64,000 nt of DNA, taken from assembly GCA_964472785.1 (NCBI GenBank), contig CAYYMH010000001.1:13244-77243 (forward strand), written 5' to 3'. The notes below the pieces were generated by a model. The model did not search any database and was not told the DNA's origin. It saw only the letters and a list, made by a program, of their open reading frames with translations. Made by a program: the position numbers and the translations under genes. Origin of the DNA: an uncultured Cytophagia bacterium (lineage in GTDB: Bacteria; Zhuqueibacterota; Zhuqueibacteria; Thermofontimicrobiales; Thermofontimicrobiaceae). The first letter of the stretch is position 1. Every line of letters begins with the position of its first letter. Positions 4,967 through 58,860 of this stretch are shown piece by piece.

Positions 4967-5086
4967 CAATAATTGTTCAAACCTAAATATGTTTTGTTCA
5001 TTTTCTAACAACCAATCATGAATGAAACAGATGTTTGTATCGCCGGGGCAAACCAATAGTTAAAAAATCATCATCTTTAATCGTGA

Positions 5087-5281
5087 CTATTCAGATAACA
5101 AAAAATGCCACAGAGATACAGAGAGCACAGAGGCATTTCAATAATCAATTGGTAGATTTTAGTATATTGATATGGCTTTGAAATTTAATCCGAAACTCTG
5201 ATTCACAAAAATGAGAAAAATAGGTACCCTAAATTTTATTGATTTTTTCTCCGAGTCCTCTGTGACTCGGAAGCTGAATAG
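5087..5281. repeat. MITE-like repeat, copy A. It is about 195 bp with 8-bp terminal inverted repeats ctattcag/ctgaatag and conserved internal hairpins aaatgcc..ggcattt and ccgagtc..gactcgg
   Basis: about 80% identical to 32548..32741 in the same orientation. Confidence 0.6.
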
Positions 5282-5494
5282 ATACCTTTAATATTCCATA
5301 TATTTAGATTTTTGAAACGAACAGGATAAAGAAAAGACTGCCTGCAAAGCTGCTATCAGCAAAACGGAGTAAATTGCTGACAAGTTTTTTTTACTTGCAT
5401 TCATCAAATAATATTATTATATTTACTTCTGTTAAATATTGAATTTTCAAGAAAAGATGAATAAAATGGTTTAAATGTGAGGAGGTTGGTTCCA

Positions 5495-20175: not shown

Positions 20176-20860
20176 TCTTTAACCTCCGATAATGAACAAA
20201 TGTAGTACATTTTAAAATTTAGATATTATCTGAACGAAAACACTTTTTTGTTTAAGAAATTGATATTTTCAAATTTGCCTAAACTTACCTCATCCCATCT
20301 CCCCTTCTCCTGGAAGTAGAAAGGAGATTCCTATTCTGGAACTGTATCAAAAGTCCCGATGCAAAATGTTTAGCCCAATTCGTAGCAGCGAATTTATTAG
20401 CTCCACACAATATATGGTATTTGACGAATAAATTCGTCACTACAAATTCACCTTTGATACAGCCCCATAGATGAAGTCTATTATGGTATTTTCGGTCAGG
20501 CAATAGATAGTAAATATACCACAACCACAGCTAATAATCAAGTAAAAAAACAGACGCCATCAAATCAGAAAAGGAAAACTGGAATCAACGATAAATTTTT
20601 TTGAAAAATATCAAAAATACTTGACATTCTAATTTTTTTTTACTTTATTGAGTCATCTTTTTATAATTTGATCTAACTAAATTAATAGAACAAAACAATT
20701 GAATCAAATAACATGCTGCGATATTGATCCGGTTTAATCAGCATGATTTTGCAGAGTAGGCGTCTTAAATTCATTTTGAGGAAAACCTCGAAACATAGTT
20801 TCGCTACAATTGATAATCACCGCATAAGCGCTATTCGTCACTCATAAAAGGGAGAACAAA

Positions 20861-31920: not shown

Positions 31921-32431
31921 AAGGTTTTCCTCCTCGCAATAAAAAGTTATAAATTAATTCGACTTACAATTCAAACAACTTTTTTGACAATTATTTTAAG
32001 TTTCTTCAAATTTATAAAATTTATTTATTATTTGCAACATATTTAAAAAACATTTTTTCTTTGATTGAATTCTATCAGCAAGGAACTGTTAAATGTCATA
32101 CAATTGAACCTAAAATTCTGAAATGAATTAAGTTATTTATTTTTTAAGTTTTTGATTAATTATAGAGGTCATCGTCTGTGACGAAGTATGCACTGACGCA
32201 GTCAATGCGCTCCACATAACTACATTAATATAATTAATTTATATTAATAATATAAATGGTCAATTTATTCTATTACACCCAAAAACTTTGTTATTTTAAC
32301 AAAATTTTTTAAAAGATGCTCATGCAAAGCCGCAGAGACGCAAAGATGCCGCAAAGGGAACTATGTAAAATGCCACGCGACTGCTTTGCGACTTAGCCCG
32401 CTTATTGGTGGGTGAGAACTAATTTTTTTAA

Positions 32432-32468
32432 ATCCGTGCAAATCCGCGTTATCCGCGTTATCCGCGTT
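32432..32468. repeat. 9-bp tandem repeat: atccgcgtt x3 perfect plus one degenerate unit
   Basis: seen directly. Confidence 0.8.
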
Positions 32469-32547
32469 CTATTTTGGTTGCGGCTTTGCTGCATTAGGAA
32501 TTTCGGTTGAATAACAAGGACGGAAAGAAGAAACAGTTTGTTTCTCA

Positions 32548-32741
32548 CTATTCAGACAACAAAAAATGCCACAGAGACAAAGAGCGTACAAAGGCATTTC
32601 AATAATAAATTCATAGATTTTATTTTAATGATGTAGTTTTGAAATTTCATCCGAAACCCAATTCACAAAAATGAGAAAAATATCTGCCCTAAACTTTATT
32701 TATTTTTTCTCCGAGTCCTCTGTGACTCGGTAGCTGAATAG
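32548..32741. repeat. MITE-like repeat, copy B (see 5087..5281)
   Basis: same TIRs and same two internal hairpins, about 80% identity. Confidence 0.6.
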
Positions 32742-32763
32742 TAACGTTTGTTTTAATCAAATC

Positions 32764-32800
32764 ATAAAAAAACAGGCGTTGTAAATTCACAACGCCTGCC
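32764..32800 (-). terminator. intrinsic terminator after the RHH gene (caggcgttgt..acaacgcctg plus T7 on the minus strand)
   Basis: 10-bp perfect inverted repeat plus T-run. Confidence 0.5.
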
Positions 32801-32854
32801 TCGTGTAACAGTAACAATAATTATAGGGGATGGATCTCGTAAAGCCTGTTTTAA

Positions 32855-39106: not shown

Positions 39107-39228
39107 AAAATAGTTTCAATAAAAAAACGTTGATTCAAATTTTTTTAAAAATTATTATTCAATCATAGCCAACTAAAAACACAAAAATGCACGAAATATT
39201 ATTTTTTGACTTTGCATTTAGTGTAATG

Positions 39229-39921
39229 TCAATTTAATAAAGTTGGATAGAGCCTTTTTAATTTAATTCTAGCATCGTCAGTGGCGAAACGCCAATCTAC
39301 TTTTGCTTCAAGGAAATTTCTTTGTTTTTGCCACTGATTTACTTCATGCTCTAATGTTTGTTTATCTGGAATTCTACGATTCAGACATTGATTTATTAGA
39401 ATTCGCAGTTCGATTTCAGCTATATTAAGCCAACTGCCATGTTTAGGTGTAAAGTGCATTTCTAATCGCTCTATCAATCGCCTGGCTTCTGCTGGCTGAA
39501 AAGTTTCGTACAAAGAGGACCCAGCATGAATATTGAGATTGTCCATAACAAGAATAACTTTATTGGCATCAGGGTAATGAACGTCCAACAATTCCTTTAT
39601 CTGATGAGCCCAATCAATTTTTGTACGATGGTCAGTGACAACCACATAACGTTTCCCGCCAAACGGCTCATAAAACATAAACAGATTACAGACGCCATTG
39701 CGCTCATATTCGTAATCATAGCGCGCAGGCTTTCCAGGCTCTACCGGTATGATATGGCGCAATTGTTTTGTCAATTGTTTGGTTGTTTCATCCATGCATA
39801 CAAGTGGCTCCTCTGGATTATATGGACGTTTGTAGACTTCAAGTATATCTTCCATGGCACAAACAAACGCAGCATTAGCCTTTGGAGGGATACACCACAT
39901 TTGTTTCAACCAGGGTTTCAA
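39229..39921 (-). CDS. IS630 transposase orfB (DDE_3 catalytic domain), in the -1 frame relative to orfA
   Basis: DDE triad context (VCMDET...VVVTDHRTKIDW...LVMDNLNIH...WLNIAEIE). Confidence 0.8.
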   Translation of the reverse strand: MKPWLKQMWCIPPKANAAFVCAMEDILEVYKRPYNPEEPLVCMDETTKQLTKQLRHIIPVEPGKPARYDYEYERNGVCNLFMFYEPFGGKRYVVVTDHRTKIDWAHQIKELLDVHYPDANKVILVMDNLNIHAGSSLYETFQPAEARRLIERLEMHFTPKHGSWLNIAEIELRILINQCLNRRIPDKQTLEHEVNQWQKQRNFLEAKVDWRFATDDARIKLKRLYPTLLN

Positions 39922-40364
39922 TTCGTTTTTTTTAAAGCCTGGCGAATGGCTTCATGGGAGATACTTTCAACATACCCGAGCTCTACTATCTTGTTTGCCA
40001 AAAGACGTAAAGTCCATCTGGTACGCCCTGCTGGCGGCTCGCTACAAGAAAGAGCAATTAAATGCGCTTCAACGTCTCCATCAATCTTTTTACGAGAAAC
40101 GTTCTGTTTATATTCTCGACGCGCTAAAACAGCATCAAACCCTTCTTCTACAAGTTGCTTACGAACGCGTTCAACAGTCTGTACCGTTACATCCAGAGCC
40201 TCACTGATTTCTTCGTCTGACCACGCTGGCCCTTTATCGCTTTGGTCAGCCTTGAGAAGAATGCGTGCACGTGTAAATATCCGTGCTGCACCACGACCAG
40301 ATGAGATTATTTTTTTTAAGTTTTTACGCTCATCATTAGATAATCTTACAATATATTTTTTCAT
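39918..40364 (-). CDS. IS630 transposase orfA (HTH domain); ends 9 nt after an A8 run
   Basis: HTH_Tnp-like N-terminus (MKKYIVRLSNDERKNLKKII...). Confidence 0.75.
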   Translation of the reverse strand: MKKYIVRLSNDERKNLKKIISSGRGAARIFTRARILLKADQSDKGPAWSDEEISEALDVTVQTVERVRKQLVEEGFDAVLARREYKQNVSRKKIDGDVEAHLIALSCSEPPAGRTRWTLRLLANKIVELGYVESISHEAIRQALKKTN

Positions 40365-40539
40365 TGATAACCCCAAAGCTTTGTTAATAAAATGGCTTCG
40401 AGGGAATATAATAAAATATAAAACAAATGTCAATAGTTATTACCCAATAATATTAGCTTGACATGACATTAGCACTATTTCGTGTGTTTCGTGGGCAATA
40501 AATCTAATTTTTCAAAAAGATTCTGATAGCCAATACAAT

Positions 40540-58735: not shown

Positions 58736-58860
58736 AAGATTTGCCACCGAGATACAGAGAACTCGGAGAAATTATATAAAAATTATTATAGAGTACCTCT
58801 GAACTCTGTGCCTTTGCGGCATTCAATTTTCGACTGAACAATTATTAACACTCAAAATAA

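Follow-up and report, generated by a model that had tools for sequence, protein, structure and literature searches.

The window analysed here, a contiguous stretch of 64,000 nucleotides, carries in the spacer between rho and rpmE an element that is most probably a MITE, i.e. a ~203-bp non-autonomous DNA transposon of a KSB1-like bacterium. We put the probability of this reading at roughly 75%. The element would represent a new sequence family of a known kind. Two full copies (A and B) and one degenerate copy (C) are present in the window (Table 1). Both full copies end in short terminal inverted repeats (TIRs), have no coding capacity and are flanked by target-site duplications (TSDs) that are specific to each site, and the element is absent from the corresponding rho–rpmE spacer of related genomes. 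A MITE-like, non-autonomous element had been proposed in the initial annotation of this DNA, and the TSDs, the TIRs and the lack of an open reading frame (ORF) support that proposal.

Table 1. Positions of the element copies, their structural features and the IS630-family element in the window
Feature	Position	Strand	Description
Element copy A (probable MITE)	5083..5285	+	203 bp, rho-rpmE spacer; alignment with copy B, nhmmer E=1.8e-70, TSD boundaries
Element copy B (probable MITE)	32544..32745	+	202 bp; nhmmer E=9.5e-68
Span bounded by 8-bp cores, copy A	5087-5281	+	
Span bounded by 8-bp cores, copy B	32548-32741	+	
Copy C	58741..58844	-	degenerate, internally deleted, ~100 nt; nhmmer E=8e-4 and 0.006
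Left TIR, copy A	5083..5094	+	GTGACTATTCAG; perfect 8-bp core 5087-5094
Right TIR, copy A	5274..5285	+	CTGAATAGATAC
Left TIR, copy B	32544..32555	+	CTCACTATTCAG
Right TIR, copy B	32734..32745	+	CTGAATAGTAAC
Left TSD, copy A	5075..5082	.	CTTTAATC; CTTTAAT repeated at 5075 and 5286
Right TSD, copy A	5286..5293	.	CTTTAATA
Left TSD, copy B	32536..32543	.	GTTTGTTT
Right TSD, copy B	32746..32753	.	GTTTGTTT
5' subterminal hairpin, copy A	5103..5138	+	dG -6.1, z -3.5; encloses three CAGAG repeats (CACAGAGATACAGAGAGCACAGAG)
3' subterminal hairpin, copy A	5250..5271	+	TCCGAGTC-CTCTGT-GACTCGGA; dG -13.1, z -3.4
IS630-family element	39221-40469	-	HTH_32 + DDE_3, two ORFs; sole transposase in the window

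Copies and boundaries of the element

Two related copies had been annotated at the core-bounded spans listed in Table 1, and both are real and lie on the plus strand. When an nhmmer profile built from A and B was run over the whole window, it returned the two copies with the E values given in Table 1 and nothing comparable elsewhere. For the 22-mer of the 3' hairpin, 0.00 chance occurrences are expected from shuffled sequences. Across 204 aligned columns, identity between the copies is 85%, slightly more than the ~80% first estimated. Their 28 substitutions are found mostly in the 5' loop and the centre of the element, whereas conservation is seen in the 5' stem and throughout the 3'-terminal 45 nt. 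The similarity is lost sharply at (A)CTATTCAG on the left and at CTGAATAG on the right, and the flanks are unalignable. The 8-bp ends that the initial annotation had described as common to both copies are confirmed as a perfect core (CTATTCAG/CTGAATAG), but the limits of the element had been drawn 4 nt too short at each end, with the flanking 8-bp direct repeats overlooked. The boundaries used here (203 and 202 bp) are set by these repeats, which are the TSDs described below.

The element had been judged too short to encode a transposase, and this holds: all six frames are interrupted by stop codons, and A and B do not have the same open stretches. None of the six-frame pseudo-peptides of the element scored against a protein in a collection of 5.8 billion proteins.

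Copy A is found in the same position in independent short-read contigs of this organism (Logan). Among these, L003 begins at window position 5241, which is the exact start of the 45-nt stretch identical in A and B. A break at this point is the behaviour expected of an assembly at a repeat, given the 45-nt identity with copy B. Contigs of two sequencing runs also break at the CAGAG repeats of copy A (window 5111-5119), where L001 runs to 5110 and L004 begins at 5120. These breaks were considered as a sign of further copies, and the idea was dropped because the k-mers at this place include unique flanking sequence. Exact identity between A and B near these breaks extends over only 20 nt, hence copy B does not explain them; local population heterogeneity in the CAGAG repeats, low coverage or a drop in coverage at the hairpin is more likely.

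Terminal inverted repeats and target-site duplications

The TIRs are 12 bp long and imperfect (GTNACTATTCAG), with the 8-bp core preceded by four variable nucleotides. These outermost 4 nt read GTGA, GTAT, CTCA and GTTA, each followed by CTATTCAG, so that a GT-A pattern is common to three of the four ends. Variation of the outer 4 nt among copies is unusual for transposon tips and counts against a MITE. Much longer TIRs, of ~60 nt, were also considered and dropped: the left end compared with the reverse-complemented right end scores only ~2 SD above shuffles, and statistical support is limited to the 12 bp and the shared CACAGAG motif.

A search for TSDs, suggested in the initial annotation as a check, found direct repeats of 7–8 bp at copy A and 8 bp at copy B. 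The repeats differ in sequence between the two sites and have the same offset at both, 4 nt outside the 8-bp core (5 nt on one side of A). In copy B all eight positions match, whereas in copy A the match as an 8-mer is seven of eight, CTTTAAT(C/A), which counts against the MITE reading. The chance of such flanking repeats was estimated from 20,000 random placements in the window. With symmetric offsets, the probability of a repeat of at least 7 nt is 0.002 (0.006 in AT-rich subsets) and that of a repeat of at least 8 nt is 0.0006 (0.002 in AT-rich subsets); with offsets left free, the corresponding values are 0.022 and 0.0067. The joint probability that both sites would show the same geometry by chance is roughly 1e-5. 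The flanking repeats are target-site duplications, of the kind left by cut-and-paste or copy-in transposition. Removal of the element and of one repeat at each site gives reconstructed empty sites that read ...CATCATCTTTAATATTCCATAT... and ...GAAACAGTTTGTTTTAATCAAATC...

No mobility at all would be involved if the copies had arisen by simple segmental duplication or resembled each other by chance. Such an origin would agree with the finding of only two full copies and none in the public collections searched, yet we regard it as extremely improbable: E values of the order of 1e-70 are not due to chance, TIRs together with site-specific, differing duplications are not produced in this way, and a third, degenerate copy exists.

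Duplications of 8 bp arise on integration by staggered cuts and are characteristic of DDE-type transposases. By this established knowledge of transposition, the 8-bp TSDs point to a transposase of the DDE type. Such an enzyme would be encoded elsewhere in the genome and would move the element in trans. It would recognise the 12-bp imperfect TIRs and possibly also the CACAGAG motifs and hairpins next to them. Target sites would be AT-rich and cut with an 8-bp stagger, and the 8-bp TSDs at both copies would result from the repair. The family may still be active.

Insertion sites and the orthologous rho-rpmE spacer

Among species representatives, MAGs of candidate division KSB1 have a Rho that shares 80-82% identity with that of the window; in a large protein collection, the value is 91-92% for several MAGs, including KSB1/Zhuqueibacterota. 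Genes for PorV and Por_Secre_tail proteins are located nearby, consistent with the FCB group. The placement of copy A between rho and rpmE is borne out by the Pfam domains of its neighbours (Rho_N/Rho_RNA_bind/ATP-synt_ab on one side and Ribosomal_L31 on the other). A short stem followed by T8 had been described ~70 nt downstream of copy A. Both are present, as a 7-bp stem (5356-5380) and a T-run (5385-5392) starting 71 nt after the copy, but the fold of the stem is no better than that of shuffles. Copy B had been assigned to an AT-rich noncoding island, and it is indeed located in a gene-free stretch of 934 nt (31921-32854) with a GC content of 31.8%, compared with 39.7% for the whole window. 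It lies 14 nt past the A-run of a minus-strand terminator (32802-32769). The two copies are oriented differently with respect to adjacent genes: copy A is sense to rho and rpmE, which are on the plus strand, whereas the genes on either side of copy B are on the minus strand and the copy is antisense to them. Copy A follows the rho stop codon and precedes an intact, conserved rpmE promoter, copy B is placed between a terminator and the upstream region of the next gene, and the insertions look neutral.

The gene order rho-rpmE-DUF1385-prfA is kept in four KSB1 relatives, in which the rho-rpmE spacer is much shorter than the 528 nt of the window: 120 nt in L005, 225 nt in L086, 130 nt in L087 and 155 nt in L088. 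The element is absent from the spacer in all four. These relatives, with Rho 82-92% identical to that of the window, are too diverged to define a base-precise empty site. Their short, element-free spacers nevertheless indicate that the element was probably gained in this lineage by insertion and did not belong to the ancestral spacer. A sigma-70-like rpmE promoter (CTTGCATTCAT, a 17-nt spacer and TATATTTAC) is strongly conserved across the same range of KSB1 relatives; in the relatives it follows the rho stop codon at a distance of ~10 nt, and in the window it is at 5395-5423. The ~416 nt that precede this promoter in the window and are missing from the relatives are made up of 211 nt for the MITE and its duplication and ~205 nt of further sequence specific to the lineage. 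The latter block (4967-5074 and 5294-5392), absent from all four relatives, ends in the weak stem and T8 mentioned above. It may be an older insertion that was later hit by the MITE, and a terminator for rho may have come with it.

Other palindromic sequences were observed in the window. An unrelated palindromic element of ~230 bp (32288-32517) is located 18 nt from the left duplication of copy B. Its end repeats are imperfect and 19 nt long (TTGTTATTTTAACAAAATT / AATTTCGGTTGAATAACAA), its inner inverted repeat (GCAAAGCCGCA/TGCGGCTTTGC) is perfect, and GCAAAG/CGCAGAG words and three tandem ATCCGCGTT units are present as well. The Logan contig L085 ends at the left edge of this element (window 32292). 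The 690-nt gap that precedes a small STAS-domain gene contains a further hairpin-rich, repeat-like segment (20290-20460; GTAGCAGCGAATTTATT...GACGAATAAATTCGTCACTAC). Calculated from their lengths, the Logan contigs recorded under L003 and L085 end at ~20371 and ~20419, a sign that this segment may be another multi-copy element.

Hairpins and internal architecture

The two conserved hairpins reported in the initial annotation exist in both copies. The arms of the 5' stem (AAATGCC/GGCATTT) were located at 5103-5109 and 5132-5138 in A and at 32564 and 32593 in B, and the 3' stem (TCCGAGTC/GACTCGG(A)) spans 32710-32730 in B, at the place equivalent to 5250-5271 in A. Local fold z-scores of the hairpins range from -2.5 to -3.5. 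Neither stem differs between A and B. In the short variants described in the next section, the 3' stem has a single compensatory change (C-G to U-A) and a single broken pair, too few differences for covariation to be counted. The loop and right arm of the 3' hairpin contain CTCTGTG, the complement of CACAGAG. CACAGAG is found in inverted orientation 9-14 nt inside each terminal repeat, and on the left side there are three copies of it in A and one in B. The two hairpins are the arms of an inner imperfect inverted repeat. Where the central ~115 nt are absent, as in copy C and in the metagenomic locus L002, the inner arms pair as a single foldback. For the whole element, fold z-scores are between -2.0 and -3.2; most of the energy is contributed by the paired termini and the two local hairpins, and A and B are predicted to fold differently in the interior.

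These folds, and the conservation of the hairpins between A and B despite divergence of the 5' loop, could also be expected of a small-RNA gene family or a cis-acting RNA, present either as a discrete transcript or as part of the rho 3' UTR. Copy A precedes the only terminator-like stem and T8 after rho and is probably co-transcribed with rho. Nevertheless, we consider an RNA gene quite improbable, and the small-RNA alternative raised in the initial annotation is left without support by the searches that bear on it. Rfam 15 gave no match at gathering score in the whole window, and only chance-level matches near the copies at E<=10; the copies have no promoter in common, and neither strand has a T-run after the 3' hairpin. 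The differing internal folds, with an energy that derives mostly from the pairing of terminal repeats, the opposite orientation of A and B relative to neighbouring genes and the absence of the element from the rho-rpmE spacer of four relatives also argue against it, and flanking TSDs are not expected for an RNA gene. A match to a tRNA or rRNA fragment, named at the outset as an observation that would speak against a MITE, was found neither with Rfam nor with ARAGORN, which reported no tRNA or tmRNA genes.

Copy C and the foldback module

The left end of copy C consists of TTCAG-N11-AATGCC followed by CAGAG repeats, and alignment indicates a central deletion of ~90 nt. Its hairpin (CTCCGAG..CTCTGT..CTCGG) differs from the 3' hairpin of the full copies by three mismatches in 22 positions (19/22 match). 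The whole copy folds as a single long foldback (dG -27.3, z -4.2). No TSD could be recognised at copy C, and TG, instead of TA, precedes TTCAG; the outer 4 nt are still similar to those of the full copies.

In the JGI metagenomes the 3'-hairpin pattern matched a single locus, L002 (contig Ga0307378_10257879), which contains only the short module and not the full element. Its layout is three CAGAG repeats, an AT-rich spacer of ~25 nt and TTCTCCGAGTTCTCTGTGTCTCGG, with the same fold as copy C (z -4.25). The module is located upstream of a ResB-like gene in an unrelated organism with GC-rich genes. At positions 31-113 of L002, directly upstream of the CAGAG/hairpin module, there is a perfect 22-bp stem (GGACAGGATTAACAGGATTTAC ... 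GTAAATCCTGTTAATCCTGTCC) with 9-nt repeats of the ACAGGAT type; different palindromic elements thus cluster at L002, as they do beside copy B.

The inner module shared by these loci can be described as two to three CAGAG repeats, an AT-rich spacer of ~25 nt and TTCTCCGAG-TYCTCTGTRW-CTCGG, forming one hairpin of ~85 nt. It is present in the 40%-GC KSB1-like genome, as copy C and inside A and B, and in near-identical form in L002. It is conceivable, if doubtful, that this module is a mobile or functional palindromic unit in its own right that crosses phylum boundaries, and that the 203-bp MITE is a composite that captured it. If so, the module would be a horizontally spreading element moved by some enzyme, or the binding site of a widely shared protein.

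The architecture of the short forms also bears on the type of mobility. Hairpin-based elements, either REP/REPIN or those derived from IS200/IS605 (PATE), are moved by a tyrosine (HUH/Y1) transposase through subterminal hairpins. A subterminal hairpin near each end, the ~85-nt foldbacks of copy C and L002 with two inverted units of ~25 nt, as in REP doublets, the occurrence of the inner unit in an unrelated GC-rich organism and the clustering with other palindromic repeats would all fit such an origin. We find it unlikely, as elements of these types have neither TSDs nor TIRs, both of which are present here. Moreover, no Y1/RAYT-like gene was detected among the Pfam-scanned ORFs of the window or in the Logan gene calls, and the two copies revealed no tetranucleotide that might be a conserved guide or target.

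Searches for further copies and for a partner transposase

The sequence of the source genome that was searched amounts to ~80 kb, i.e. the 64-kb window, which is part of a 286,929-nt contig, and ~16 kb of adjoining Logan contigs, and nhmmer detected no copy in these Logan contigs. The 3'-hairpin 24-mer, scanned as an exact/IUPAC pattern, had no match in 185,579 species-representative genomes, and the same type of scan found no full copy in the JGI metagenomes, where the one short-module match is L002. Viral contigs contained no match to the 3'-hairpin 24-mer and none to the 5' end, the central block or a loosened hairpin-plus-end pattern. In plasmids and phages, blastn of the element gave only chance-level matches of 20-40 nt. 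The A+B nhmmer profile revealed no new copy in 89 fetched loci, including three relatives with Rho 91-92% identical to that of the window, and the literature contained nothing relevant on MITEs or transposable elements of KSB1.

An autonomous partner with matching ends was not found in the window. This result and the small number of copies count against the MITE reading, but many accepted MITE families have no known partner IS, so its absence does not exclude membership. The IS630-family element of the window comprises an HTH_32 ORF (40433-39918) and a DDE_3 ORF (39921-39229), and their 4-nt overlap suggests a frameshift. The element is flanked by TA and has imperfect terminal repeats of ~31 nt, with ends GTGTAATGTCAA.../...TTGACATGACAT. 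As a partner of the MITE it was rejected on account of these TA flanks and of ends unrelated to TTCAGATAAC. Inverted-repeat arms (AAATGCACGAAATA / TATTTCGTGTGTTT) flank it at window 39185-39198 and 40476-40489, possibly because it landed in another palindromic element. Calculated from its length, a Logan contig from this organism has its end at approximately window 39287, inside the IS630-like element.

Both full copies can formally be read as C-TA-[TTCAG...CTGAA]-TA-G, that is, as an IS630/Tc1-mariner-type MITE with true ends TTCAG...CTGAA that was inserted in a CTAG target with duplication of TA by an IS630-family transposase, and an IS630-family element with TA flanks is indeed present in the window. 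This alternative is very unlikely. The ends of the IS (GTGTAATGTCAA...) are unrelated to TTCAGATAAC, nhmmer shows no similarity between the MITE and the IS630 region, and in copy C TTCAG is preceded by TG while similarity is kept in the outer 4 nt. In addition, the 7-8-bp repeats situated 4-5 nt further out would have to be a coincidence, with the joint probability of ~1e-5 given above.

The probable MITE would add a previously undescribed family of such elements to KSB1 (Zhuqueibacterota), an uncultured phylum with essentially uncharacterised mobile DNA. It would account for breaks in short-read assemblies of the source organism at these sites and guards against mis-annotation of the element as an sRNA or a regulatory RNA of rho/rpmE, and the insertion sites with their duplications can serve as a marker for strain-level population studies. 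The understanding of how MITEs function is unchanged; a wider reach lies only in the CAGAG/hairpin foldback shared with the GC-rich organism.

Comparison with known elements

Among insertion sequences, the IS66 family is characterised by 8-bp duplications and by ends starting with GTAA. The element described here has TSDs of the same length, and its tips (GTGA/GTAT/GTTA/CTCA) are close to GTAA. Inward of these four nucleotides its ends are unlike the IS66 consensus, and no IS66-type transposase (TnpC) was found in the window. Duplications of 8 bp are also made by ISL3, IS256, IS1595, IS6 and ISAs1, any of which is, like IS66, a possible mobilising family. With MITEs of the IS630/Tc1-mariner type the element shares formally TA-flanked ends and the co-occurrence of an IS630-family element in the window, but its terminal sequences differ from those of that IS, and the supported duplications are 8 bp long and located outside the TA.

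The inner module resembles REPIN/REP doublets in being an inverted doublet of ~25-nt units (a CAGAG arm, an AT-rich spacer and a CTCCGAG arm), and the short form is a single ~85-nt hairpin that is clustered with other palindromic repeats, as in REPINs. The full element differs from REPINs by its TIRs and TSDs, which REPINs lack, and no RAYT gene was seen. Hairpins are also common to the element and to IS200/IS605-derived PATEs, which insert 3' of a fixed tetra- or pentanucleotide and from which it is set apart by its TIRs and 8-bp duplications.

MITEs known from bacteria include Correia/NEMIS of Neisseria, Nezha of cyanobacteria and Chunjie of Geobacter. The element has no known sequence similarity to any of them, and the full element has none to the content of the collections searched. 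It differs from them in its very short perfect repeat core (8 bp), in the variable outer 4 nt and in its uncultured KSB1 host, and from Correia in the duplication, which is 8 bp here and TA in Correia. Bacterial MITEs occur in several diverged copies per genome, compared with two full copies and one degenerate copy in the 64 kb of the window. In its general organization the element is like other bacterial MITEs: it falls within their size range of ~100-400 bp, is noncoding and intergenic, has TIRs and TSDs and can fold into a long hairpin.
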